The notes: generated by a model not told the origin, from the sequence alone. Counted from the stretch's first letter, positions 23,858-61,804 are shown. The stretch is DNA of 64,000 nucleotides from Spartobacteria bacterium (GCA_947487385.1 CANKWU010000007.1:7894-71893); one strand, 5' to 3'. Made by a program: numbers and translations.

Positions 23858-24126
23858 TTCCCCTATGCTATTGGTGAAGTGGCAACCCGTGCAAGAAACC
23901 CCGACAGTGGGAGTTTTAAATATGGTATTGCTTGCGTGCTAAAGCGTCAGGAACTCAAAAAGGGAATCTAGGCAACCGCTGAATCAATCTTAGCGAGGCG
24001 CGCTGCTTGGAATTCTGAAACTAAGGCAAGGTGATTGGGAGGGAGCGTGTGAAAATCTACCCCAACTCCTCTCCTCTCGCCAGCAGTGCACTTTTTGGAC
24101 AGCCTCTTACGGATCAACTTACCCCG

Positions 24127-26244
24127 ATGATATCCCTCAGAAAGTCTTTGGTTCCGCGATCCATCGGACAGCGTTTTGCATTGGCCATCGGGACCGGGGC
24201 CTCTGGCATCCTGATCGCACTAGCATTAGTGAATTTCATTAACGGGAGTGAGTTGCTCTTGAATCAAGCCTCACAAGAGGCGATCAGGCAGGTCCATAAT
24301 GAGATTGGCAACTGGGACGACCAAATCGAACGGATCGGAATGCTTCCGAGGGTCATCGGAGCAATCGAGGTAGATAGTCAAAGCCAGGTAACAATCCCCT
24401 TGCTGGCAACCCTGCTAAAACGTACCACCGGCAACAGCGTCTTCGGCCTTTACATGTATCGTGAGGATTTAGACTGGCATGATCCCAAGTCGTACAGCTG
24501 GGTTAACCTCAAGAGTTGGCCCAATGCCGCATCCCCTACATACCTTGCTTACGACTTTCATGATCCTACGCAAGATTGGTATCGGGGAGCGAAGGAGGGC
24601 AAAGGACTGCACGTTACTCTCCCCTATTTTGCTGCGGGCGGCTCAGAAATCAACATGATCAGCATCACTAAGGCTGTACGCGATCCCTCCGGAAAATTCA
24701 TTGGAGTGGCAGGAGCCGATGTTTCCATGGAAGAAATGGAAAAGATGATCCGGGAGATGGATCTCCGTGATTTTGGGACAAATCGTTTTGTTAAAAACGA
24801 TGATCCCAAGAGTGCTAACTCAACAAGGATGGAGAAATATCCCGTCCAATCCTCCTACCTGATCTCAAAAACAGGCGCAGTGATCATCGGTCCCGGAATC
24901 GAAACAGAAAAGAGGGCTCGCAAACCGGGGTATCAGCATCCTGAAGAAAGCATGGAAACCCTTGCTGACCATGGCCTGCAACTCGCCCCTGAACATCTCT
25001 CGCAGATTCTCTCCACAGAGACCGGTTGGCTGCGTGTCGAACAAAATGGAGACAAGCTGATTTGTTGGGCTCAAAGCAAGATTACCGGATGGAAACTTAT
25101 TCGATCGGTTCCCTACAGCATGATCATTGCGCCAGCCAGTCACTTGGCATCGGAATCTCTTGTGATTGGAGGGGTCGGGCTTTTTGTGCTGATCGGTGTC
25201 GTGTTCTTCACTGCTCGCAGGATCTCGGAACCGATCACATCACTCCAGTCCGTCGCCACAAACTTTGAGCGCGGTTCCTATGATAAAGGGAGAGATGTAC
25301 TCAGCCGGATCGAAAAACGCCCCGACGAGCTGGGTCGGTTTGCCAAGAGCTTCTCCGCCATGGCGCAGGAAATCCACCTGAGGGAAGAGAGACTCTCGGA
25401 GTGGAACACCAACCTGGAAGTGACGGTGAAAGAACGAACTTCCGATCTGGCTGCCGCCATGTCCAAAGTCGAGAAAGTGAATGCCGCCATGGAGGCTGAA
25501 CTTGCAGAGGCAGCAGCTTACTCCCGTGCCGTACTGCCTGGGAAACTGACCACGCCCGTCACCACCGACTGGGTATTCATCTCTTCTTCGCAGCTCGGTG
25601 GGGATTCCTTCGGTTATCACTGGATCGACGACGACACCTTCTCCCTTTATCTGCTCGATGTCTGCGGTCACGGCGTGGGGGCGGCCTTGCTCTCCACTAG
25701 CGTGGTGAATGTCCTCCGCTCCTCCTCCCTTGCTGACACAAACTTCCTAGATCCTGCAAATGTTCTTGCTCAACTGAATGCCGCTTTCCCGATGGAGCGG
25801 CATAACGACATGTATTTTACTGCCTGGTATGGAGTCTACACCCTCTCCAACGGCACCCTGCGCTTCGCCTGCGGCGGACACCCTCCCGCCGTGCTCGTTG
25901 CGCCGGATGGAACGATCTCCAATTTGACTGCCAAGGGCACCGTCGTAGGGGCCTTCCCCAATCCCACCTACGAAACGGCTTCGACTGAAGTAACGCCGGG
26001 CTCCAGACTCTATCTTTTCAGTGACGGAACCTATGAAATCGATCGCCCCGACTCCACAATGATGACCCATCAGGAGTTTTCCGAAATCCTCAAAGCTCCC
26101 GTCACAACAGGAACTTCCAAACTGGAAACTGTTGTCATGGAGGTGCGGAAACAGCAGCAAAAGGAGGCCTTCGCGGATGATTTCTCATTGGTGGAGTTTC
26201 TCTTCCCCGATCACAACATCCCTCCCACGGCCTCCTCGGAGTGA
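24127..26244 (+). CDS. Membrane sensor: periplasmic Cache-like domain + HAMP + PP2C/SpoIIE serine phosphatase (RsbU-like), kinase domain lost
   Basis: Two TMs flank an extracytoplasmic domain of about 300 aa. An HAMP/coiled coil follows (RPDELGRFAKSFSAMAQEI), then a SpoIIE-type phosphatase (GGDSFGYHW...LLDVCGHGVGAALLS...LYLFSDG). The start is taken at ATG 24127 by alignment with the paralog. Confidence 0.8.
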   Translation: MISLRKSLVPRSIGQRFALAIGTGASGILIALALVNFINGSELLLNQASQEAIRQVHNEIGNWDDQIERIGMLPRVIGAIEVDSQSQVTIPLLATLLKRTTGNSVFGLYMYREDLDWHDPKSYSWVNLKSWPNAASPTYLAYDFHDPTQDWYRGAKEGKGLHVTLPYFAAGGSEINMISITKAVRDPSGKFIGVAGADVSMEEMEKMIREMDLRDFGTNRFVKNDDPKSANSTRMEKYPVQSSYLISKTGAVIIGPGIETEKRARKPGYQHPEESMETLADHGLQLAPEHLSQILSTETGWLRVEQNGDKLICWAQSKITGWKLIRSVPYSMIIAPASHLASESLVIGGVGLFVLIGVVFFTARRISEPITSLQSVATNFERGSYDKGRDVLSRIEKRPDELGRFAKSFSAMAQEIHLREERLSEWNTNLEVTVKERTSDLAAAMSKVEKVNAAMEAELAEAAAYSRAVLPGKLTTPVTTDWVFISSSQLGGDSFGYHWIDDDTFSLYLLDVCGHGVGAALLSTSVVNVLRSSSLADTNFLDPANVLAQLNAAFPMERHNDMYFTAWYGVYTLSNGTLRFACGGHPPAVLVAPDGTISNLTAKGTVVGAFPNPTYETASTEVTPGSRLYLFSDGTYEIDRPDSTMMTHQEFSEILKAPVTTGTSKLETVVMEVRKQQQKEAFADDFSLVEFLFPDHNIPPTASSE
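25480..25849 (+). repeat. Near-identical 370-bp block shared with 28236..28605 (gene-conversion tract)
   Basis: By manual alignment at constant offset 2756 there are 4 mismatches in 370 bp. The flanking homologous sequence is clearly more diverged. Confidence 0.85.
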
Positions 26245-26385: not shown

Positions 26386-26736
26386 CTAGGCCACTGAGGA
26401 GCCGATCGCAACGAGTGCCTCGTCCCGCGTAGCGCAGACGGGATACGCGGTCTCAAACTGAGCGATATCGAAAATTCTTTTCACAGAAGGCTGGAGGGCA
26501 CAAACGGCCAAACCCCCACCGACCCGCTGCAACTGCCTCCCAAGCAGGAAGAACTCGCGAAAACCAGCACTACTCACGTACTCAAGACCAGCTAGGTCGA
26601 ACACAACACCTTTAGAGCCACATGACTCGATCTCCTTAGCCACGGAGTCCTTGATCATGTTCTGCTCGGTTGCATCAAGACGCCCTTTGAGTACTACGAC
26701 AAGGATGGGACCGGCTTTTTCGAATTGCAAATCCAT
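26386..26736 (-). CDS. STAS-domain anti-sigma-factor antagonist (RsbV/SpoIIAA-like)
   Basis: 116 aa. VVVLKGRLDA...VVFDLAGLEYVSSAGFREF places the phosphorylatable Ser in the D-x-x-x-x-x-x-S-S-x-G context. Confidence 0.85.
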   Translation of the reverse strand: MDLQFEKAGPILVVVLKGRLDATEQNMIKDSVAKEIESCGSKGVVFDLAGLEYVSSAGFREFFLLGRQLQRVGGGLAVCALQPSVKRIFDIAQFETAYPVCATRDEALVAIGSSVA

Positions 26737-26867
26737 AATTCAGATTAACTCAAAACGCTCCGAGGTCAAGTACTGCTCTCTCAATGTGTCGCAAGCAGAG
26801 GCAAACAGCGCCTGAGCATCCGCTTGGCATTGACCCATGGATAAACTATCACTTGCCTAAGAAGCAA

Positions 26868-29411
26868 ATGTCCATGCTCTCTCTGAAACATTATCTAACA
26901 CCCCGATCAATCGGGCAGCAGTTCGCCCTCACCATCGGAGCCGGAGCAGGTGTGATCCTGATCGTCTTGGCAGTAGCCAACTACATCAGTGGCAGGGAGC
27001 TGCTTCTCCAGCAAACTTCACAGGAGGCACTCCGGGCGGTAAATGACGAGATCAACACGATGGATGATCTCGTCGAGAAGATGGCGATGTATCCCGAGGT
27101 CATCGCCGCCACAGAACTCTCCGGCACGAATAACGAGGGAGTTAAGGTTCCATGGCTCTCCTCTCTGCTCGTGCACTCGCCGATGCCTGCCATCTACGGG
27201 GTCTACATGGCCAGAGATTCCAAGCACTGGCAGGATCCCGATTCCGACCCGTGGGTTGACCGCAAGAGCTGCCCAAATCCGGCACACCTGAAGTACGACT
27301 TCCATGATGAGAGTCAGGACTGGTACATCGGGGCAAAGGAGGACAAAAGACTCCATGTGACTCAGCCTTATTTTGATGCGGGAGGCTCAGACATCGACAT
27401 GATCAGCATTACCAAGCCCGTTTACTCAGACGAAGGAACCTTCGTTGGGGTGGCAGGCGTCGATGTGGCTCTGGACGAAATGCGAAAAATCGTCCGGAAA
27501 ATTAACATTAGGGATTATGAAACGGATCTGACTCAGGGCGATGGGGGCGGCAAGGTCACCCTCTCTCCGAAGAGTCAGACCGTGGGTGTGCAGGAACCGC
27601 ATGAAACGGCCTATCTGGTCTCCCAAAGTGGCGCGATCATCGTCAGTCCCGAGACATCGCAGGAAAAACCTGCTTCGAAATCTGGCGAACAGGATCCGAC
27701 CAAGGCCCTGGAAGACCTGCTCAGCAACGGACTGGTCACCAGCGTTCCCGGCATCCAGAAGATTCTGGCCTCGGACAGCGGATGGCAGCGCCTCAAGGAT
27801 GGAAGTAACAAGGTGATTTACTGGGCCAAGGGCAGGACCACCGGATGGAAACTGGTGCTGGAAGTGCCTTACGAACTCATCGTGGCTCCGGCCAGAAAAT
27901 TAGCAGAACAGTCGGCGATCATCGGTGGGGCGGGGCTTTTTGTGCTGATCGGTGTCGTGTTCTTCACATCCCGCAGGGTTTCGGAGCCCATTACCGAGCT
28001 TCAGACCGTGGCTACCTCGTTTGAGAAAGGAAGCTATGACGGCGGGGCGGGGATTCTGGAACGGATCGAAAAACGCCCCGACGAGCTGGGTCGGTTTGCC
28101 AAGAGCTTCTCCGCCATGGCGCAGGAAATCCGCCTGAGGGAAGAGCGTCTCTCGGAATGGAATGCCAATCTCGAACAGACAGTCAAGGACCGCACCGCCG
28201 ACCTCGCCGCAGCCATGGAGAAGGTCAAGACGGTCAATGCCGCCATGGAGGCGGAACTTGCAGAGGCAGCAGCTTACTCCCGTGCCGTACTGCCTGGGAA
28301 ACTGACCACGCCCGTCACCACCGACTGGGTATTCATCTCTTCTTCGCAGCTCGGTGGTGATTCCTTCGGTTATCACTGGATCGACGACGACACCTTCTCC
28401 CTTTATCTGCTCGATGTCTGCGGTCACGGCGTGGGGGCTGCCTTGCTCTCCACTAGCGTGGTGAATGTCCTCCGCTCCTCCTCCCTTGCTGACACAAACT
28501 TCCTAGATCCTGCAAATGTTCTTGCTCAACTGAATGCCGCTTTCCCGATGGAGCGGCATAACAACATGTATTTTACTGCCTGGTATGGAGTCTACACCCT
28601 CTCCACCGGCATCCTACGCTTTGCCAGCGGTGGTCACCCTCCCGCCGTATTGATCGCTCCAGACGGAAACGTGCTTCATCTCTCAGCCAAGGGCGCGGTC
28701 GTGGGAGCCTTCCCCAAGCCCATCTACGAAACGGCTTTGACTCAAGTTGTGCCGGGCTCCAGACTCTATCTTTTCAGTGACGGAACCTATGAAATCGATC
28801 GCCCCGACTCCACAATGATGACGCACGAGGAATTCTCCATTATCCTCAAGGATCCTGTTGCAACAGGAACCCGTAAACTGGAATCTGTCGTCATGGAGGT
28901 GCGACAACAGCAGCAAAAGGAAGCCTTCGCTGATGATTTCTCATTGGTGGAGTTTCTCTTCCCCGATAACCAGCCTGCGTCCCATGGGGTCCTCCGATTG
29001 AAGGCCGAACTTAGCGAACTGACACGACTCCACCCGTTTCTCACCTCCTACTGCGAGAAAGAAGGTACCCCTACGGAGCAGATCTTCGACTTCGAGGTCA
29101 TCCTCGAGGAACTCGTCACCAATGTCATCAAATACGGTTGTGTTCAGGCCGGGAAGGAATGCTGCCTCATCGAACTTCTCCGCGAGGGAAACCAAATCAC
29201 CATCCGCTTCAGCGACCATGGCAATCCGTTCAACCCACTTGATCGGGACGAAGTCGACACAGACAAACCGATTGAGGAACGCGAGATCGGAGGCCTCGGC
29301 ATCCACTTCATCAAGAATCTCACCGACTCACAGAGCTACGAATACAAGGATGGAATGAACATCCTCACTCTCAACGTAACATTCACTACTTTAGCTAATG
29401 TTGATGCCTGA
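26868..29411 (+). CDS. Membrane sensor: Cache-like + HAMP + PP2C/SpoIIE phosphatase fused to C-terminal RsbW-like serine kinase (HATPase_c)
   Basis: Architecture matches 24127..26244. It adds a C-terminal domain of about 140 aa with an N-box EELVTNVIKYG, DHGNPFNP and GGLGIHFIKNL. Confidence 0.8.
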   Translation: MSMLSLKHYLTPRSIGQQFALTIGAGAGVILIVLAVANYISGRELLLQQTSQEALRAVNDEINTMDDLVEKMAMYPEVIAATELSGTNNEGVKVPWLSSLLVHSPMPAIYGVYMARDSKHWQDPDSDPWVDRKSCPNPAHLKYDFHDESQDWYIGAKEDKRLHVTQPYFDAGGSDIDMISITKPVYSDEGTFVGVAGVDVALDEMRKIVRKINIRDYETDLTQGDGGGKVTLSPKSQTVGVQEPHETAYLVSQSGAIIVSPETSQEKPASKSGEQDPTKALEDLLSNGLVTSVPGIQKILASDSGWQRLKDGSNKVIYWAKGRTTGWKLVLEVPYELIVAPARKLAEQSAIIGGAGLFVLIGVVFFTSRRVSEPITELQTVATSFEKGSYDGGAGILERIEKRPDELGRFAKSFSAMAQEIRLREERLSEWNANLEQTVKDRTADLAAAMEKVKTVNAAMEAELAEAAAYSRAVLPGKLTTPVTTDWVFISSSQLGGDSFGYHWIDDDTFSLYLLDVCGHGVGAALLSTSVVNVLRSSSLADTNFLDPANVLAQLNAAFPMERHNNMYFTAWYGVYTLSTGILRFASGGHPPAVLIAPDGNVLHLSAKGAVVGAFPKPIYETALTQVVPGSRLYLFSDGTYEIDRPDSTMMTHEEFSIILKDPVATGTRKLESVVMEVRQQQQKEAFADDFSLVEFLFPDNQPASHGVLRLKAELSELTRLHPFLTSYCEKEGTPTEQIFDFEVILEELVTNVIKYGCVQAGKECCLIELLREGNQITIRFSDHGNPFNPLDRDEVDTDKPIEEREIGGLGIHFIKNLTDSQSYEYKDGMNILTLNVTFTTLANVDA
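28236..28605 (+). repeat. Partner of the 25480..25849 near-identical block
   Basis: See 25480..25849. Confidence 0.85.
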
Positions 29412-29657
29412 TCGCTCGAGAGGAGAGCGAAGCGAGGCTTTAGTGGTTCCCTGGTAGAGCTTGATCCCACTTCCTCGGTCTCACAAATCCAATGAACTTC
29501 CTCACCCAGTTGCGAAAAAGTCATACTTCCCCGCAACGATGCTGCGGGAGAACGGGCCTTGTGAAATCTTCCCCACCTCTCATCCCACATCGCATCGGAT
29601 ATGGGAGAACTCTGTGGAACCTTGGAAATCAACGAGTTATCACTCATCTTTTAAAAT

Positions 29658-29698
29658 AACACATGTGTTCCATTAGTGCAATATAATGACATGTCATT
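29658..29698. promoter_or_regulatory. Two perfect palindromes with a shared ACATGT core flanking a TATAAT hexamer
   Basis: AACACATGTGTT lies at 29658-29669, TATAAT at 29682-29687 and AATGACATGTCATT at 29685-29698. This is 23 nt upstream of the first gene of the AT-rich block. Confidence 0.35.
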
Positions 29699-29720
29699 CT
29701 AAAATACGTTCGCTTCAAAA

Positions 29721-30131
29721 ATGATCCTTCGATACACGGCAGTATCTATCTTCGCGACCTGCTTGGTTACTGGCTGCGATGAGTCCGTGCCACTGAATTA
29801 CTCCACTCGCGCTGATGCCAATGCCGAGAGCCTTTTCGCACGAGGATGGCTACCTGAGATTATTCCGCCATCGAGTCGCAACATTTCCATGCGCAACGAA
29901 CTCGACCTGAATATCTCGAACGGTGAGTTCAGTTTCGAGCAGTCGGATCATGACGCATTCGTGACCCAGCTTGAGAGAGAGTCATCACGGGACGAGGGTG
30001 GGTCTCTCGCCTATGTCTATCACGAATGGACCTTCTGGATCAATGGCGACAAGAACCACTGCCGATTTCACATGCGCCTCACCCGGAACAAAAAACAAAG
30101 CGAACAAGACGGCACATCCAACGGCGGGTAA
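29721..30131 (+). CDS. Small lipoprotein, unknown function
   Basis: The signal peptide plus lipobox is AVSIFATCLVTGC. No family recognised. Confidence 0.6.
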   Translation: MILRYTAVSIFATCLVTGCDESVPLNYSTRADANAESLFARGWLPEIIPPSSRNISMRNELDLNISNGEFSFEQSDHDAFVTQLERESSRDEGGSLAYVYHEWTFWINGDKNHCRFHMRLTRNKKQSEQDGTSNGG

Positions 30132-30165
30132 CCTCCTTCTTTGAATTCGGGCTTCACTCTCCTCC

Positions 30166-30888
30166 GTGGATGGCCTAGACGTTCGGCTGAAAAATCTTCC
30201 TATGCCCCTAACTCAATCCTATTCGCGCGTTAAAGACGGTGTCGTGCAAGTCCTCGCCCTGAACGGCTCAACGCTTGTATCCTTCGGATCAGGTTCGGTT
30301 ATCGACGATGGATGCAAGGTTCTGACCTGTGAGCATTGCGTGATTGCTGGCACGCAGGCAGCTATCGCAGACCCAAGGAACCCAGGACGAGCACTTTTCG
30401 GTAATGCGATCTTTGTGGACAAGGCCAACGATATCGCCGTGCTAGAATTTCCAAATCCTGTCGGCACGGCTGTCGAACTCGTGAATAGCTCGAAATGTCA
30501 GATTGGGAATGGTGCCTTTGTAGTTGGATTCCCAATGGGGGTGAACGAACAAACGCTCTTTTCTGCTCACATTGCTAGCATCACTGGAAGTCACCTCCGT
30601 ATTGATGCGTCAGTGAACCACGGCAACAGCGGTGGGCCGCTTTTTGACCTCGATGGCAGGCAGATCGGCATCGTGAACGCGAAACATGGCTCACTTTCGC
30701 AGTTTCTTACACAGGTGAAGGATGCCAAGCCTGGTGCGATGATGAGTATTGGAGGGATTGATCCAGTGAAAACAATTCAAGTGCTGATACAAGAAATGCA
30801 GAAGAATCTGAATTTGGGTATTGGTTACGCAGTTCCGACCGAGAAGATAAAACCACTTCACGCCATCCTCACAAAGTGTGTTAAATAA
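30166..30888 (+). CDS. Trypsin-like (S1/S1C) serine protease without PDZ domain
   Basis: The triad context is LTCEHCV (His), NDIAVLEF (Asp) and NHGNSGGPLF (Ser). The start may be GTG 30166 or ATG 30187. Confidence 0.75.
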   Translation: MDGLDVRLKNLPMPLTQSYSRVKDGVVQVLALNGSTLVSFGSGSVIDDGCKVLTCEHCVIAGTQAAIADPRNPGRALFGNAIFVDKANDIAVLEFPNPVGTAVELVNSSKCQIGNGAFVVGFPMGVNEQTLFSAHIASITGSHLRIDASVNHGNSGGPLFDLDGRQIGIVNAKHGSLSQFLTQVKDAKPGAMMSIGGIDPVKTIQVLIQEMQKNLNLGIGYAVPTEKIKPLHAILTKCVK

Positions 30889-30892
30889 ACTC

Positions 30893-30951
30893 GCCGAACA
30901 AGTCGGTGGAGGCAACCGGCATTCGCCGGTGCCTCACCTCTGCCGTTAGCC
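30893..30951 (+). repeat. attC-like element A (59 bp)
   Basis: GCCGAAC-aagtc-GGTG(G)AGGC-a-ACCGGC-attc-GCCGGT-GCCTCACC-tctgcc-GTTAGCC. The outer boxes resemble RYYYAAC / GTTRRRY with one mismatch each. The spacers are 5 and 6 nt, the left arm has a bulged G, and no T-run follows. Confidence 0.55.
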
Positions 30952-30963
30952 TAAAACCTACAC

Positions 30964-31596
30964 ATGATGCCATCGCTTAGCGTAGCAATTTCACTTATCG
31001 CACTAGGCGTGTCGGTAATTACGGCTTGGCTTACATTTTTTCGTCGAGGTAGGCTTGTAATGACGCAGCCGACGCTGGTGTTTTTCGGGCCAGACGGACC
31101 TCAGTTCATCGGAAAAAATAAAATATACCTTCGAACACTAATATATTGCACGGCTAAGCGTGGAATTGTAATTGAGAGCCTTCACGTGACAGTGCAGAGA
31201 AACGAGTCGAAACAGAACTTCAATATATGGGTATATGGAGACAATGGAGATCTGAAGAGAGGAAGCGGTATTTTCGTCCCACAGGAGGGAATTACATTCG
31301 ACCACCATTTTCTACAACCAGCAGACGGCTCTAACTTTAAATTTAAAGCAGGTGCATACAGACTGACGGTTTTAGCCAAGCTCGTAGGTGAAGAAACTCC
31401 TAAAGAGCTGATGACGATAAAGCTCTCAATAAGTGAGTCGCAAGAACTTGCGCTTTCAAGCCCGCAAACAGCTATCTTTTTCGACTGGGGACCTGATCAG
31501 CAAAACTATCATCCTCATATTCGAAACGGCATGGATATCGATTCGGATATGAAGAAACTCATAGAATCATTTGATAAAATAAAAGGAAAAGGCTAA
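30964..31596 (+). CDS. Hypothetical single-pass membrane protein
   Basis: N-terminal TM (SLSVAISLIALGVSVITAWLTFF) followed by a soluble domain that looks beta-rich. No family recognised. Confidence 0.55.
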   Translation: MMPSLSVAISLIALGVSVITAWLTFFRRGRLVMTQPTLVFFGPDGPQFIGKNKIYLRTLIYCTAKRGIVIESLHVTVQRNESKQNFNIWVYGDNGDLKRGSGIFVPQEGITFDHHFLQPADGSNFKFKAGAYRLTVLAKLVGEETPKELMTIKLSISESQELALSSPQTAIFFDWGPDQQNYHPHIRNGMDIDSDMKKLIESFDKIKGKG

Positions 31597-31648
31597 CCAA
31601 GCGATGCAGCGAACGCCCTTCGGTCGTCGCTGATCTTGCACGTTAAAT
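31591..31648 (+). repeat. attC-like element B (58 bp)
   Basis: GGCTAAC-caagc-GAT(G)CAGCGA-acgcccttcggtcg-TCGCTGATC-ttgcac-GTTAAAT. The right box is a perfect GTTRRRY. The stop codon TAA of the upstream gene lies inside the left box. Spacer and bulge geometry match element A. Confidence 0.55.
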
Positions 31649-31665
31649 AACTCCAAGCTTTTCCT

Positions 31666-32163
31666 GTGCTAATTAGCCCATTGGCAGATGTTCCAGCGGC
31701 CATTCCTACGATGGCAAAATGGTTCTATGATGAATGGCACACCTTTGATGGTCGTTCCATCGATCAGATCACTGCCCAACTTTCAGATAATCTCAACCGC
31801 CATTCACTCCCTATCACCTTTGTGGCACATGAGAATCTTGAGATCATGGGGACTGTTTCCCTCGATATTTCGGATCTTCCGGAATTTGACTGCTATTCTC
31901 CTTGGCTCTCATCGCTCTATGTCCATGAGGGCCATCGAGGCAAAGGCGTTGCCTCTACTCTTGTCAGTCATCTCAAGCATTTTGCATGCTCAGGTGGAGT
32001 CACTCCCTTATACCTCTGGACTCCTGGCTCTACATCCCTCTACGAGCGATTAGGATGGTTTGAGATTTCAAGAAGATCTTACCGATATAAGGATATCACT
32101 ATCATGAGTTATGCCGGTTTGCATGGGTGTTCTGTACATAGTGTCGCTCAGCTCCTACGTTGA
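31666..32163 (+). CDS. GNAT-family N-acetyltransferase
   Basis: The acetyl-CoA motif A is HEGHRGKGVASTLV. The start may be GTG 31666 or ATG 31711. Confidence 0.75.
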   Translation: MLISPLADVPAAIPTMAKWFYDEWHTFDGRSIDQITAQLSDNLNRHSLPITFVAHENLEIMGTVSLDISDLPEFDCYSPWLSSLYVHEGHRGKGVASTLVSHLKHFACSGGVTPLYLWTPGSTSLYERLGWFEISRRSYRYKDITIMSYAGLHGCSVHSVAQLLR

Positions 32164-32169
32164 GGAAAA

Positions 32170-32583
32170 ATGAATATTCATTACGAAACTAATCGTGCGA
32201 TTTCTGAGCATGAATTTATCGACCTGCTTCGTCGCTCGACGTTAGCCGAACGTCGCCCCATTGATGACGCAAACTGCGTGAAAGCGATGCTTCATCATGC
32301 AAATTTGCTCTGTACTGCGTGGGACGGTACGGCGTTGGTTGGTGTAGCCCGCTCTGTTACCGATTTTGAGTATTGCTGTTACTTATCTGATTTGGCGGTT
32401 GACCAAGACTATCAGAAGAAGGGGATTGGTCGTGCGTTGATCCGACTGACACAGTCAAAGCTAGGGAAGCGAGCGAAGTTGATTCTCCTGGCGGCACCGA
32501 AGGCCGAAGCTTATTACCCTCAGATTGGGTTCGAGGCGCACCGATCCGCATGGCTTATCCCCGCTATCCAAGAACTAAAATAA
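32170..32583 (+). CDS. GNAT-family N-acetyltransferase
   Basis: Motif A is DQDYQKKGIGRALI. A GAGG sits 8 nt upstream of the ATG, and the gene is only 6 nt from the previous GNAT stop. Confidence 0.8.
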   Translation: MNIHYETNRAISEHEFIDLLRRSTLAERRPIDDANCVKAMLHHANLLCTAWDGTALVGVARSVTDFEYCCYLSDLAVDQDYQKKGIGRALIRLTQSKLGKRAKLILLAAPKAEAYYPQIGFEAHRSAWLIPAIQELK

Positions 32584-32593
32584 AAATCACGAA

Positions 32594-32635
32594 GCCAAAC
32601 CAGGCGTTAAAACATAACGCCCACGGACGTTAGCC
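32594..32635 (+). repeat. attC-like element C (short/degenerate)
   Basis: GCCAAAC-ca-GGCGTTA-aaaca-TAACGCC-cacggac-GTTAGCC. The right box is identical to that of element A, but the spacers are asymmetric (2 and 7 nt) and the length is only 42 bp. Confidence 0.3.
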
Positions 32636-32851
32636 TAATTCCTCAGCCAAGGCGGGGAAGTTTGGATGCAGGACATGACGGCTTGGAACCAAGCCTCAGG
32701 GAAGAGGCGCGGGAGACGGCCTCCCGGCAGCCCTACAGAGAGGGACTGCTTGCCGGAAGCAAGTTTGCCGTCAAAAGCCCATTAGTCATCCTACGCCGAC
32801 CGTAGGCCAACGCTGCTATCCGCCGATATCGCGAGCGCCTTCCCTTGCCAC

Positions 32852-34264
32852 TTAGATCTTGCGGAGCTGAATCGAATCAAACTTCTCATCCCCCTCAACG
32901 ATGTCGCTCATCACGATGAGCTGATCACCTTTGTTCAGGAGGCCACGGGAAAGAAGAAGTTCTTCTGCCTTTTTGACAGATTCCTCGGGAGTCGCCCCGA
33001 ATGGCATCACGAGCGGCATGACGCCCCAGTTGAGCGTGAGATGACGGGCCGTCACTTCCGAAGGGGTGATGGCGTAGATGGTTGCGTGCTCGGGACGGAT
33101 GTGGCTGGTGTAGTCGGCCATGTCGCCGTGGCGGGTCAAGACGGCAATGCTGGCATTCGCAAAGGAGTTAGCCAGCACGACACCGGAGTGTGCGGTCTTC
33201 TGGCGGGGAGTCAGCAGGGAGGTCTGCTCGGCAAAGTGGGCGCTGCCGCTACGCTCAATACGACGTGCGATCCGGTCGAGGACCTTCACGCAATCGATGG
33301 GATATTTCCCGACGGTAGTTTCTCCACTGAGCATGATGGCATCAGCCTGCTCAAAGACTGCGTTGGCGACATCGGTCACCTCGGCGCGGGTCGGGACAGG
33401 ATTTTCGATCATCGACTCCAGCATGTGCGTGGCGACAATGACCTGCTTGCCGATCTTAAGAGCTATCTTGAGAATCTTGCGCTGGATGATGGGCAGTTCC
33501 TCCATCGGGCATTCGATGCCGAGATCTCCACGGGCGATCATGACGGCATCGGTCTCCTTGATGATCTCGGCGATCAGCTTGACGGCGCTCTGATCCTCGA
33601 TCTTCGCGATGACGCGGGCCTTGCTGTTATGGAGAGCCAACACACGGCGCATCTCGACGACGTCCGAAGGTTCGCGACAGAAACTCAGGGCGACAAAGTC
33701 GACGCCCACCTCGGTGCCGACAGCAATATCAGCAAGGTCTTTTTCCGTGAGGGGGGGGAGATTGACCTTCACTCCCGGCAGATTGATATGCCTGCGGGAA
33801 CCAAGCGCTCCCGGTGTGAGTACCTCGCAGCGGATACGGTTATTGATCTTGGAAAGAACCTTGAGATGGATGACGCCATTGTCCACAAGGACCACGTCCC
33901 CCTCGTTGATGTCGTCGATCAGGCCGTCGTAGTTAACGTTGACGGAATAGAGCTCCTCACTGCGGGCACCACGGACGGTGAACTCCATGATGTCCCCAAC
34001 CTTGAGATTAAGTTTCGTCGGGAGGTCGCCGGTGCGGACAGCAGGACCCTGTGTGTCGAGGAGGATACCTACCGGCATATCAAGCTCGGCAGCGATCCCC
34101 CTGATGGTCGGGACGATCTGGCGCACCCAATCATGCTGGGCATGGCTCATGTTGAGCCTGAAGATATTGGTTCCAGCCAGGATCATCTCGCGAAGACGCT
34201 CCGGAGACTCGGTCGCAGGGCCTAGGGTACAGATAATTTTGGTTTTACGAAGAGCAATGGTCAT
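32852..34264 (-). CDS. pyk: Pyruvate kinase
   Basis: RKTKIICTLGPA, NMSHAQH and MIARGDLGIE. The start is taken at ATG 34264 (MTIALRKTKI). Confidence 0.9.
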   Translation of the reverse strand: MTIALRKTKIICTLGPATESPERLREMILAGTNIFRLNMSHAQHDWVRQIVPTIRGIAAELDMPVGILLDTQGPAVRTGDLPTKLNLKVGDIMEFTVRGARSEELYSVNVNYDGLIDDINEGDVVLVDNGVIHLKVLSKINNRIRCEVLTPGALGSRRHINLPGVKVNLPPLTEKDLADIAVGTEVGVDFVALSFCREPSDVVEMRRVLALHNSKARVIAKIEDQSAVKLIAEIIKETDAVMIARGDLGIECPMEELPIIQRKILKIALKIGKQVIVATHMLESMIENPVPTRAEVTDVANAVFEQADAIMLSGETTVGKYPIDCVKVLDRIARRIERSGSAHFAEQTSLLTPRQKTAHSGVVLANSFANASIAVLTRHGDMADYTSHIRPEHATIYAITPSEVTARHLTLNWGVMPLVMPFGATPEESVKKAEELLLSRGLLNKGDQLIVMSDIVEGDEKFDSIQLRKI

Positions 34265-34387
34265 AAAAATGGGATGGTTTGGAAATGATGTCTCGGCAGT
34301 GTCTGGGGAATCCAAAGAGCCAATCAGAGAGGCACGCTCTTGAAAAGCATCACTTCAATGAGACTCTGTAGAATTGTGCGGCGGTTG

Positions 34388-39065: not shown

Positions 39066-40050
39066 ACGTCTCAGCATTTTTCTGGCGCTTGCGGGGATCC
39101 TCGCAGTCACCCTGCTCGTGTTCCGACTGAAGAAAGCCCCGCCAACACCAATCCCCTTGGTTGAACCGTCACGAGCACCCTATGCCGACTCCATCGGGGC
39201 TCGCGGGATCGTTGAGGCGGTCAATGAGAACGTCATTGTTGCACCGATTCTGCCAGGGATGATCACGGATATCTACGTGCACGTCGGGGACTTGGTGAAA
39301 AAGGGAGCCCCCCTCTTCCGACAGGATACCCGTGATGCTGGGGCTAAAGTCAGCGCCCAGCAGGCTCAAGTCGCACTCTTGGAAGCGCGCGTCAAGGAAT
39401 CGGAGGTGCGGGTAGCCGACAAGCAGGATGATCTGGCGCGAGCTGACCGACTCCTCTCGCAGAGGGTGATTAGCGACGATGTGCAGCGGAGGAAGTATTT
39501 TGAACTTAAGTCGGCAGAGTCCTCCCTTGACTCCGCGCGCGCAGAACTCCTCCTGGCTCGCGCCCAGTTGACTCAGGCGGAAGTGACGCTCGATCTGCTC
39601 ACCGTTCGAGCACCGCGAGATGGCGAGATCCTCCGGCAGAACATGCATGAGGGGGAATACGCGGGGGTCGCTTCTTCCGATCAGAACACTCCCTCCCTAC
39701 TGCTTGGGGAAACGACGCACCTGCAGCTCCGTGCCGACGTGGATGAGGATAGTGCTTCACGAGTCCAGACGGGAGCTGTTGCCGTGGCCTACATCAAGGG
39801 GATGCACTCTGATCCCATCCCTCTCCGCTTCGTCCGGATCGAACCCTACATCACCGTGAAGAAGTCGCTCACCGGCGATAGTAGCGAGCGCGTCGACACC
39901 CGCGTCCTTCAGGTGATCTACCAGTTCGACAAGACCAAGGTGCCCGTCTATGTGGGCCAGCAGATGGATGTCTTTATCGAGGGTAAAGCCCCTAAGGATC
40001 CGCAACGCGAGAACGACAAAAAGATCCTTCTCACGCCTAAGTCATCCTGA
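39058..40050 (+). CDS. HlyD-family periplasmic adaptor (DevB-like)
   Basis: 8-nt overlap with the ATPase gene. It has an N-terminal TM, a lipoyl-like hairpin (GDLVKKGAPLFRQD), a coiled coil and a beta-barrel. Confidence 0.8.
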   Translation: MLKRLSIFLALAGILAVTLLVFRLKKAPPTPIPLVEPSRAPYADSIGARGIVEAVNENVIVAPILPGMITDIYVHVGDLVKKGAPLFRQDTRDAGAKVSAQQAQVALLEARVKESEVRVADKQDDLARADRLLSQRVISDDVQRRKYFELKSAESSLDSARAELLLARAQLTQAEVTLDLLTVRAPRDGEILRQNMHEGEYAGVASSDQNTPSLLLGETTHLQLRADVDEDSASRVQTGAVAVAYIKGMHSDPIPLRFVRIEPYITVKKSLTGDSSERVDTRVLQVIYQFDKTKVPVYVGQQMDVFIEGKAPKDPQRENDKKILLTPKSS

Positions 40051-40146
40051 GCCTGGTAAAGTCCCTCAGCCAAATGGTGTGAAGGCAAATTAACATTCAC
40101 CGGTTTTATCAGCGGAATGAGTGGGAGAGACGCCCTGCACCTACCC

Positions 40147-40872
40147 TTAAGACTTGCCGGAAAAAGGTAATTTACCTCGGACTGCTATTGGAGAACCTTC
40201 GGCAAGAAAAATGGAACTCGGCGGATAAGATAGACTTTCGACAAAAGCATTTCCATAAAGTTTGGAAACGTCTGCGTCTAATTCGTAATCAGTACATTGC
40301 TGAATATTCCAGCGTGGATGTTCCACCTGAAATTCGCAACCTTCCCGAGACTGAGCGTTATAACCCCAGTAGTGCTCAGTAATGAACTCTTCTTCCGAGC
40401 CAACCGCTATTGCCCCTAAAGGACCTACTCCCGTAGCTCGAACTGATTCCCATTGATGATTTCTTTTCCAGGAATATTCAATCCGGACTCCTGATTCGGT
40501 CACACCGATGTGGTGTTTCATCGGCAGAGCTCGATAGGGCTCACCGTAGAAAGTACGTGCAGTAAAGGCAATCGCCCACTTGGGAACCAATTCGCTGACA
40601 AAAACTACTCCCCGTCGCCAGGAATTCTTGATTTTACGCCGAACATAAAATCTTAAATTCACCTCTTCAAAATCTTTGTGAAAGGGAAATGTGAACCCCA
40701 GAACCCGAGTCTTGATGAACCTAAATCCAACGATGCTCAGATACGTTTTATTATCAAAGAAGTCCAACTCAGTACCTGAAGGCACAAGTGGCTTCAGGAC
40801 AGCAGGATCGACCACATAATTAGCCATTAAAAGGTGCCTCCATTCGGCAGTGAGGAATAGGGAAGTTTTCAA
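40147..40872 (-). CDS. DUF2071 (YqjF-like) family protein
   Basis: LFLTAEWRHLLMANYVVDPAVLKPLVPSGTELD matches my recollection of the DUF2071 N-terminus. Confidence 0.6.
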   Translation of the reverse strand: MKTSLFLTAEWRHLLMANYVVDPAVLKPLVPSGTELDFFDNKTYLSIVGFRFIKTRVLGFTFPFHKDFEEVNLRFYVRRKIKNSWRRGVVFVSELVPKWAIAFTARTFYGEPYRALPMKHHIGVTESGVRIEYSWKRNHQWESVRATGVGPLGAIAVGSEEEFITEHYWGYNAQSREGCEFQVEHPRWNIQQCTDYELDADVSKLYGNAFVESLSYPPSSIFLAEGSPIAVRGKLPFSGKS

Positions 40873-40924
40873 GGGCTACCCTTAAGTCCAGTTGAGCGAT
40901 CGTGAGATGTCGATTAAGAGTTTT

Positions 40925-42517
40925 TTAACCTGGAGTGTTAAGCGTAAGCGTCCTTTTAGGATCCTTGTTTAAGGATTTCAGAAAACTCTCTGCCTCGGCG
41001 ACGATTTTGAGACGCTCCTTGGCATCACGTTTTTGCCATGACCGGACAGGCATTGCGGTTCTGGGATTTCGGATCAAGAGCTCCTGATTCGTGTGGAAAA
41101 AATTCCAATAGAGTAGATTCAGCGGGCAGGCCCCTTTACCGCTCTTGATGCTGGGACTGAATGAACAGGTGCTGCAATAGTTGCTCATTTTATTGATGTA
41201 GGCACCACTGGCAGCATAGGGCTTGGTAGCCATGAATCCGCCATCCGCGTGCAAGGCCATTCCAAGAACGTTCGCAGCCATCACCCAATCATGGGCATCG
41301 ACATACATCTCGTTGAACCATCGAAGTGCTTCCTGAGGATTAACTCCTGCCATTAGTAAAAAGTTCCCCAGAACCATGAGCCGCTGGATGTGGTGATTGA
41401 AACCCCGGTCAAGCGTTTCCCGTAGGGCTGTGGACAAACAGTTCATCGAGGTCTCACCGGAGTAGAAGAACTCGGGGAGCGACCGTGTGGCGTTAAGACC
41501 ATTGACCGAGGCGTACTCAGGCATTTTTAGCCAGTAGACACCGTTCACAAACTCACGCCAGCCGATCACTTGCCTGATAAATCCCTCCACGGCATGGAGG
41601 GGTGCCTTCCCTTCTTTGAAGGCCTTCTCTGCCGCCAGAACGCACTCCATTGGTTCGAGTAAGCCGATGTTGAGCATTGGTGAGAGGATGGAATGAAAGA
41701 GATCGCCATCTTCCGACACCATCAAGTCCTGCCAGGTGCCGAATTCCGGCAAGCGAGATTCGATGAATTCGCGCAGAGCTGTAAGAGAATCCACCCTCGT
41801 GACCGGTAATGAAAAGTCAGCGGCTTTTCCCGGTGCATCCGGATAGATCGTTGCCAACTCACGAGCGACTTCCTGTGTGATTTCATCCTGTGGCAGTGGA
41901 TGTGACTTTTTCGGTCGCGGCATACCTGCCTTCTTCCAGTCGGCAAAGGTGGCTCGGTTCTCCTGATCGTAGTTCCACTGCCCGCCGAGTGGCTTGGAGG
42001 CATCATCGGCCTCCATCAGCAGTCCCGTGCGACGACGCATCTCGCGATAAAAGGTCTCCATGAGAAGGCGCTTCTTAACTCCTGCCATCTCTAGAAAATC
42101 TTCCCTGGAGCACAAAAACTGAGTCGTTGGGATGATTGTGAGGGGAACAGGCAACTTGGCTTCTAGGATCTTCAGCGCCAGCTGCTCGTCATAATTATTA
42201 GGCTGGGCAACAAGCAGGGATGCGGGCTTTTGATCCCTACAATGCACTTCTAAAACAGATCGCATATCAGCTGTATTCTCCAACCGGTGATACTCAACTT
42301 CCCACCCTTCTGCTTCCCGTTCCGCCGCGAAGTGTCGCATGGCAGAGAGCAAAAGCATGAGGCGATGACGATGGTAGGGCAACTTGCCGAAGGACTGCCT
42401 CGACTCCACAAAGAGGAGGCGGTCCCTACCCTTTCGGGCCGATGCGATGGCCGCATGATGCTCCGAGAGCTGATCCGGAAGGATCAAAATAGAGTGCTTT
42501 TCAGAAGAAATAGGCAT
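40925..42517 (-). CDS. Fe-S bacterial cryptochrome/photolyase (FeS-BCP, COG3046; (6-4) photolyase-like)
   Basis: It resembles the deoxyribodipyrimidine photolyase-related protein family. One Cys lies in NCLSTALRE, followed by CSTC-x12-C (CSTCSFSPSIKSGKGAC). That reproduces the C..C-x2-C-x12-C 4Fe-4S ligand spacing known for PhrB/CryB. Confidence 0.8.
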   Translation of the reverse strand: MPISSEKHSILILPDQLSEHHAAIASARKGRDRLLFVESRQSFGKLPYHRHRLMLLLSAMRHFAAEREAEGWEVEYHRLENTADMRSVLEVHCRDQKPASLLVAQPNNYDEQLALKILEAKLPVPLTIIPTTQFLCSREDFLEMAGVKKRLLMETFYREMRRRTGLLMEADDASKPLGGQWNYDQENRATFADWKKAGMPRPKKSHPLPQDEITQEVARELATIYPDAPGKAADFSLPVTRVDSLTALREFIESRLPEFGTWQDLMVSEDGDLFHSILSPMLNIGLLEPMECVLAAEKAFKEGKAPLHAVEGFIRQVIGWREFVNGVYWLKMPEYASVNGLNATRSLPEFFYSGETSMNCLSTALRETLDRGFNHHIQRLMVLGNFLLMAGVNPQEALRWFNEMYVDAHDWVMAANVLGMALHADGGFMATKPYAASGAYINKMSNYCSTCSFSPSIKSGKGACPLNLLYWNFFHTNQELLIRNPRTAMPVRSWQKRDAKERLKIVAEAESFLKSLNKDPKRTLTLNTPG

Positions 42518-61638: not shown

Positions 61639-61804
61639 TTTTCTACCGAATAAATCGGCAGAATGCGATTATCCCCTGATTCATGACGAAAAAGCCCAAC
61701 CTGGCGCAGGGATTATTGATGCGGGGCTAGGCGTGTGAGCGACACTGTAGTTTTCCTACAGCGAGTAAGCAGCAACAACACCCCGCGCTAAAAGCGCAAG
61801 CCGC

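Follow-up and report, generated by a model that had tools for sequence, protein, structure and literature searches.

The DNA analysed here is a 64-kb window (the whole stretch examined, to which all coordinates refer) of a metagenome-assembled genome scaffold from a freshwater Chthoniobacterales bacterium ('Spartobacteria', Verrucomicrobiota), and our subject is the integron cassette array that it carries between a sensor gene (Cache-HAMP-SpoIIE-HATPase; 26784-29411) and the convergently oriented pyruvate kinase gene pyk (32852-34315). Five open reading frames, all on one strand, lie between these flanking genes at 29721-32583. They were present as given in a preliminary description of the locus, with the adjustment that gene 2 more likely starts at the ATG at 30203 than at the GTG at 30166. 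Gene 1 (29721-30131) encodes a predicted lipoprotein (YbbD_head in its database record), gene 2 (30203-30888) a trypsin-like serine peptidase (Trypsin_2, E = 1e-18), gene 3 (30964-31596) a protein with an N-terminal membrane helix and no family, and genes 4 (31666-32163) and 5 (32170-32583) two GNAT acetyltransferases (Acetyltransf_1 and Acetyltransf_10 respectively). The Pfam search returned no family for genes 1 and 3, none of the five proteins had a homologue in any of the 120 metagenome loci listed, and a search against Rfam gave no family at the array, its sole match being a tRNA. The array had also been described as more AT-rich than its surroundings, which held for the segment as a whole (GC 0.486 compared with a window mean of 0.547, a value equally low in just 1% of 2.9-kb windows) but not evenly along it, since cassettes 3-5 form the AT-rich part (0.44-0.49) and cassettes 1-2 stand at 0.51-0.53. 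From left to right the locus consists of a frameshifted ~190-nt 5' stub of the integrase gene intI (minus strand), an attI site, five cassettes, a spacer and the convergent pyk.

Under the established integron model, each cassette would formerly have been a circle with one gene and one attC site. As the last six bases of the right attC box (R') belong to the next cassette in the integrated array, such an origin implies that the first six bases of a cassette (those after G/TT, where the slash marks the crossover) complement the left box of its own attC, a relation that we call the circle rule. The rule was obeyed by the first three cassettes, all on the plus strand and each comprising one gene plus its attC: G/TTCGCT at 29708 pairs with AGCGAAC at 30099 (cassette 1, 29709-30181), G/TTCGGC at 30181 pairs with GCCGAAC at 30893 (cassette 2, 30182-30945) and G/TTAGCC at 30945 pairs with GGCTAAC at 31591 (cassette 3, 30946-31642). 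It was the box pair of cassette 1 that revealed the attC site at 30099-30187. A search without constraints, for 7-mers chained with their complements, was not discriminating (0.43 triple chains per shuffled window, and one chain in coding sequence), and the rule was for this reason validated on independent data, by conditional and family-wide tests. Across the family it held for 173 of 295 adjacent site pairs (122 loci), compared with 6.9% under random pairing of the same boxes. Among the retrieved relative loci and metagenome contigs, which are designated by L-numbers, L101 is a complete integron with intI, attI and four cassettes, and all four obey the rule using three different box pairs.

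Three intact attC sites were thus delimited on the plus strand, namely site 1 (30099-30187; 89 nt, AGCGAAC...GTTCGGC), which overlaps the last 33 nt of gene 1, site 2 or element A (30893-30951; 59 nt, GCCGAAC...GTTAGCC) and site 3 or element B (31591-31648; 58 nt, GGCTAAC...GTTAAAT), whose left box contains the TAA stop codon of gene 3. The boxes of all three conform to RYYYAAC...GTTRRRY, with AAC and GTT invariant and at most one departure from the consensus each, and in a set of 411 family sites these pairings rank within the top seven by frequency. The central spacers measure 5 and 6 nt in A and B and 5 and 5 nt in site 1. For A and B, the boxes, spacers and stems, as well as the position of the gene 3 stop codon, were seen where the preliminary description had placed them; the single bulged G that it assigned to the left arm gave way to two unpaired bases (positions 16 and 23) that enclose a 6-bp stem, an arrangement common to A, B, site 1 (here A16 and A23) and the family alignment. 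On the bottom strand, position 23 is the canonical T and position 16 is C or T, not the usual G; the class 1 attC sites of cmlA1 and estX likewise have a top-strand G at position 16. Efficient recombination by IntI1 requires extrahelical bases at such a spacing (Nivina et al., PMC5027507), and the spacing found here matches that canon.

Both elements had been proposed as attC sites, and two independent covariance models agreed. The first (R1) used 18 diverse sites from relatives, all validated by the circle rule, with the window excluded; 93.8% of its structure was paired, compared with 23-38% in controls with slid partners, and 11 of the 12 L-stem pairs were compensatory. Run with filters off on both strands of the 64 kb, R1 gave only three strong matches, all on the plus strand at cassette ends (site 1, 46.8 bits, E = 4e-10, full length; A, 52.0 bits, E = 2e-11; B, 52.9 bits, E = 1e-11). 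The second (R2), trained on nine class 1 attC sites, which came from plasmids of enterobacteria and Acinetobacter and were trimmed to 60 nt, returned A (33.9 bits, E = 5e-6) and B (40.2 bits, E = 1e-7) as its only significant matches on either strand, and this 60-nt model did not find the 89-nt site 1. Element B belongs to the homogeneous short class of the lineage, and 47 other loci among the matches listed have sites with 98% identity to it. Neither A nor site 1 had sequence relatives in the other arrays compared, which means that the model recognizes them by structure. A structural scanner (~8 chance matches per strand per 64 kb) supplied no more than candidate sites, whose validation rested on the circle rule and the covariance models. 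Folding of single sequences gave modest z-scores (-1.4 to -3.4) and did not show pairing between the left and right outer boxes (R'' and R'), as the last six bases of R' are those of the next cassette.

The sites of the two distal cassettes are degenerate. Cassette 4 (31643-32159, plus strand) ends in the right half of a long-class attC (32112-32165, plus strand; L', spacer TCCTAC and R' GTTGAGG), the left half of which is lost; positions 32112-32151 are ~90% identical to the right half of 90-nt class sites at 46 loci among the matches listed. The last ~17 codons of gene 4 and its TGA stop are read from this half-decayed attC (32112-32163), a recombination site that is here co-opted as coding sequence. 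Cassette 5 (32160-32629, plus strand) has a weak terminal attC-like site on the same strand (32594-32635), with the arrangement GCCAAAC-CAGGC...hairpin...CGGAC-GTTAGCC. Together with the intact site 1, these two sites had been missed when A and B were first described. Cassettes 1-3, whose sites are intact, should still be excisable if IntI were supplied, while cassettes 4 and 5 would now be effectively fixed genes.

Immediately before cassette 1 we found attI (about 29663-29714, plus strand; its function is predicted), with a ~45-nt core that ends CTAAAATACG/TTCGCT and a crossover between G29708 and T29709, and next to it the 5' stub of an intI pseudogene on the minus strand (29455-29647, ATG at 29647-29645), which is frameshifted and retains about the first 64 of 466 codons. 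Window positions 29455-29708 are 70% identical, over 263 nt, to positions 451-706 of contig L109, a segment that begins at the first cassette junction and reaches into the 5' end of intI, and tblastn matched the minus strand of 29455-29573 to residues 25-64 of the L109 IntI in two frames (E = 1.4e-8). In L109, L169 and L089 attI lies between an intact intI and the first cassette; in a multiple alignment the window is collinear with these three contigs and the homology stops exactly at CTAAAATACG/TT, after which each continues into a different cassette. The stub ends 43 nt from the stop codon of the sensor gene. The same junction is present in L214, a contig of another sample with a 98% identical sensor gene, in which the stub carries a further 69-nt deletion and the contig ends at attI. 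No homologue of IntI, Xer or any other tyrosine recombinase was found in the 64-kb window using an IntI1 probe validated as 100% identical to annotated intI1. The earlier statement that the window has neither intI nor attI was hence correct as to an intact intI and incorrect as to attI and the integrase remnant. The attI core contains a TATAAT motif, with no -35 element found beside it.

More than 15 loci share the conserved ~45-nt attI core, each with a different cassette directly after G/TT, and the core adjoins at least five unrelated upstream contexts (L115:5125-5164, L137:2707-2756, L113:2818-2860, L139, L187, L147, L165 and others). Housekeeping genes without any integrase lie upstream of attI in L115 (DUF72 and a Y-family polymerase), L137 (HPr kinase) and L113 (MotA/ExbB), and loss of intI with retention of attI looks recurrent.

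True integron integrases accompany this attC family. When metagenomes were scanned for the 21-nt core of long-class sites, at least 120 contigs were retrieved, many of them with 2-7 copies, and among the matches listed 11 contigs encode proteins 40-55% identical to IntI1, in six cases 47-55% over long stretches. In the contigs examined, the integrase genes are divergent from the cassette strand, and the proteins of L109 and L182 scored 434 and 399 bits respectively against the NCBIfam integron-integrase model TIGR02249 (cutoff 265 bits). The IntI of L109 (516-1916, plus strand) is 466 amino acids long and has a ~153-residue N-terminal extension that constitutes a second Phage_int_SAM_4 domain (31 bits, cutoff 27), conserved at ~81% in L169:2361-3143 and L089:2-358; an integrase linked to the attI type of the window would thus have a duplicated core-binding domain. 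The IntI proteins of L174, L182 and L101 align to this form only from residue 153 on and have no homologous extension. Two attI types, ending GGCCATTTGGCCGCCTAGTAMCTG/TT (L003/L004) and CTAAAATACG/TT (window, L204, L109), occur with the same homogeneous attC classes, and the IntI proteins of the two attI/intI types are ~42-51% identical to each other, so that two integrase lineages seem to share one cassette pool. Tyrosine recombinases beside pyk in more distant relatives (L052, L057 and L063) were considered as IntI and rejected, being of the XerC/D type.

The content of the segment varies among near relatives. We compared eighty pyk loci from GTDB genomes; in close relatives (pyk 87-97% identical) the order CitMHS-DUF4410-pyk is kept wherever contigs are long enough, and synteny with the window is lost within 200 bp of the pyk stop codon in all of them. 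Beside pyk, L005 (pyk 96.6% identical) has no cassettes, L003 (97%) has two other cassettes and L004 (97%) has at least 11 others, with canonical boxes and very homogeneous site classes of ~58 and 90 nt. The segment is therefore not a fixed block, in line with its initial description as a cassette array. In L003 and L004, the first cassette is preceded by an ABC-F gene and a conserved leader (...CCTAGTAMCTG/TTAGAC), and GTCTAAC is the left box of that cassette's own attC. Next to the sensor gene, L204 (sensor 85% identical) carries the same attI and stub with other deletion end points, followed by five other cassettes that include a Macro-domain gene and a PhdYeFM-YoeB pair; the differing end points imply that intI was deleted at least twice at this site. 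In a second sample of the window array, genes 2-5 and the pyk flank are unchanged, the contig beginning inside cassette 1. More widely, the homogeneous 58-nt and 90-nt attC classes occur in more than 100 contigs, and relatives repeatedly have arrays next to pyk and next to the sensor gene, but several of them have empty sites (L005, L206 and L218), and A and site 1 do not belong to these classes by sequence. The two flanks of the window array border two separate sites in relatives, sensor/AKR (L204, L206, L215-L218) and ABC-F/pyk (L003-L005). The stubs of the window and L204 with their different cassettes were considered as proof of cassette turnover after the loss of intI and rejected as such, as the truncation end points differ on both sides.

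The sensor/AKR site of L215 (7782-8489, minus strand), L216 and L217 is occupied by a single gene for an apparently secreted 235-residue protein of no family. It lies on the opposite strand and has neither attC nor attI, which indicates that this site gains genes by non-integron routes too.

We read the region as the integrase-proximal part of a sedentary chromosomal integron of freshwater Chthoniobacterales, whose intI was destroyed by deletion, and put the probability of this reading at about 0.9. In the order of events that we infer, the loss of intI would have left the array unable to rearrange by itself, and the array should at present be immobile; its cassettes are presumably transcribed. 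With three intact and two degenerate attC sites and no intact intI in the window, it is a cluster of attC sites lacking integron-integrase (CALIN; Cury et al. 2016, PMC4889954) by the IntegronFinder definition (at least two attC sites without an integron-integrase nearby), one that arose by loss of intI. Of the two options offered in the preliminary description, a CALIN-type array or the distal end of a sedentary integron, the former stands and the latter falls, as attI and the intI stub mark the integrase-proximal end.

Several observations weigh against this interpretation. Recombination by these sites is putative, being predicted from their sequence. The circle rule fails in cassette 4, where the expected left box ATTTAAC is missing, and in cassette 5, which starts with TTGAGG and has the terminal left box GCCAAAC. 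The terminal site at 32594-32635 reached only 13.9 bits with R1 (E = 0.18), its boxes and spacers alone matching. On the plus strand of 29300-32900 there was no match to a sigma-70-like promoter, as judged by a tool whose rules omit this phylum, and the search for intI covered 64 kb of a 228-kb source scaffold. Finally, the array may be a chimera, since its sensor and pyk flanks belong to two integron-bearing sites.

A different origin would make the array a distal piece of some larger, intact integron, split from its integrase by a chromosomal rearrangement. In its favour, the sensor and pyk flanks border separate integron-bearing or empty sites in relatives, so that some rearrangement must have taken place. 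We consider this origin very improbable: the array begins with attI and the 5' end of intI, and is therefore a proximal end, and its integrase was truncated in place, close to the sensor stop codon. A reading of the hairpins as ordinary intrinsic terminators or intergenic repeats of the repetitive extragenic palindromic (REP) type, with a coincidental likeness to attC, could draw on GC-rich inverted repeats just past stop codons and on the modest folding z-scores. It can practically be dismissed, given that no T-tract and no plus-strand terminator call follows A or B (the lack of a U-tract having been noted from the outset), that two attC models match the elements specifically, that the boxes show circle-rule complementarity, that the sites are linked to true IntI genes and that site 1 lies partly within a coding region.

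On another reading the array is live. It would be one of several attI-bearing arrays without intI into and out of which cassettes are still moved by an integrase from another place in the genome, for example one of the 466-residue L109 type. Retention of the attI core beside at least five unrelated contexts, with no upstream intI in L115, L137 and L113, is in keeping with this, and so are the intact attC sites 1-3 that obey the circle rule and the L214 contig, which shares the junction and breaks exactly at attI, as if the population varied downstream; mobilization of CALIN cassettes in trans has been held plausible (Cury et al., PMC4889954). Yet the 64 kb contain no intact intI, the samples L001 and L002 are identical downstream of cassette 1 (L001 having all five cassettes), and decay of the stub shows in its frameshift here and in the extra deletion of L214. 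Moreover, the truncation end points of the window and L204 differ, so that their different cassettes can predate independent losses of intI, and conservation of the attI core may simply reflect a recent loss. On balance we regard a live array as rather unlikely. The broader proposal that the lineage may run a multi-site integron, with intI-less, attI-bearing arrays serviced in trans by a single 466-residue integrase with a duplicated N-terminal SAM-like domain, is put forward as a doubtful suggestion. As part of it, recombination between such arrays might have joined the sensor-side and pyk-side sites of this genome, and cassette arrays would then drive chromosomal rearrangement.

Taking the array as an integron remnant that lost intI, its closest counterpart is the class of CALINs for which loss of intI was listed as origin (iii) by Cury et al. 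(PMC4889954), who also reported integrons in Verrucomicrobia. The array matches that origin. It differs in keeping a recognizable intI remnant together with attI: an intI pseudogene was found near just 15 of 279 CALINs by a search aimed at the C-terminal domain (Cury et al., PMC4889954), and such a search would miss a 5' stub like the present one. Loss of intI as an origin of CALINs may accordingly be under-counted. Integrons and CALINs are already on record for Verrucomicrobia. The understanding of how integrons work is unchanged by our results. What the locus offers is a clean, fully bounded example of CALIN formation, with attI and a 5' intI stub beside intact cassettes and distal cassettes that are decaying into ordinary genes. 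It also documents an abundant, previously uncharacterized family of integrons among Chthoniobacterales of fresh water and peat, whose attC classes are very homogeneous and which should be useful for models of attC and IntI outside Proteobacteria.

Like the Vibrio cholerae superintegron with its Vibrio cholerae repeat (VCR) sites, these integrons are probably chromosomal and have homogeneous, lineage-specific attC classes (58 nt and 90 nt, up to 98% identical across loci), cargo mostly of unassigned function, a toxin-antitoxin cassette (in the related L204) and a content that varies among close relatives. They differ from it in the small size of their arrays (0 to at least 11 cassettes, and at most seven core-bearing sites per retrieved metagenome contig), in their verrucomicrobial host, in the repeated loss of the integrase and in having at least two attI/intI types (that of the window and that of L004/L101) with the same attC classes. 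With class 1 attC sites (aadA, cmlA1 and dfrA27, among others), they share an R'' of 7 nt, a 5-nt spacer and an L'' with unpaired bases 16 and 23 around a 6-bp stem, followed by L', a 6-nt spacer and an R' with the G/TT crossover; the stop codon often falls inside R'', and a model trained on class 1 sites alone finds A and B. In contrast to class 1 integrons, the locus has no Tn402/Tn21 context and no resistance genes, its attC sites are unrelated to theirs in inner sequence, and identity of the integrase lineage to IntI1 is no more than 40-55%.

The spacer between the array and pyk (32636-32851) lies outside the integron proper, is partly alignable to L003, L004 and L005, and includes a dispersed intergenic repeat (...GCGCAGGGATTxTxGATGCGG..GTGAGCG..CTGTAGTTTTCCTACAGC..AACAAC...) that carries a CTGTAG/CTACAG hairpin and is found at the 3' ends of convergent genes. 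Copies were located at 61700-61800 and 32770-32850 in the window and at L206:10730-10810, L005:11411-11560, L204:13965-14087 and L215:8540-8640. At the pyk site as well as at the AKR site, integron arrays lie directly against this repeat, one copy of which contains GTTAGGC; the repeat may act as a terminator, be a small mobile element or serve as a secondary target for integration. The ~215-nt tail was tried as a marker of the pyk locus and discarded, a dispersed intergenic repeat being uninformative on locus identity.

Elsewhere in the window, a second AT-rich patch (40000-41250, GC 0.45-0.48) comprises a DUF2071 gene and the start of a DPRP-family gene, and neither R1 nor R2 gave a match there. 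Within gene 5, the palindrome CGACGTTAGCCGAACGTCG (32238-32256) joins GTTAGCC and GCCGAAC, the two commonest boxes of the family, probably by chance. The sensor phosphatase/kinase gene is duplicated, the two paralogues (24031-26244 and 26784-29411) being 65-69% identical and flanking a STAS gene on the minus strand (26386-26736). It is single-copy in L204, L206 and L215, and L203 retains only a short 5' remnant of the first copy (58 residues, 91% identical).

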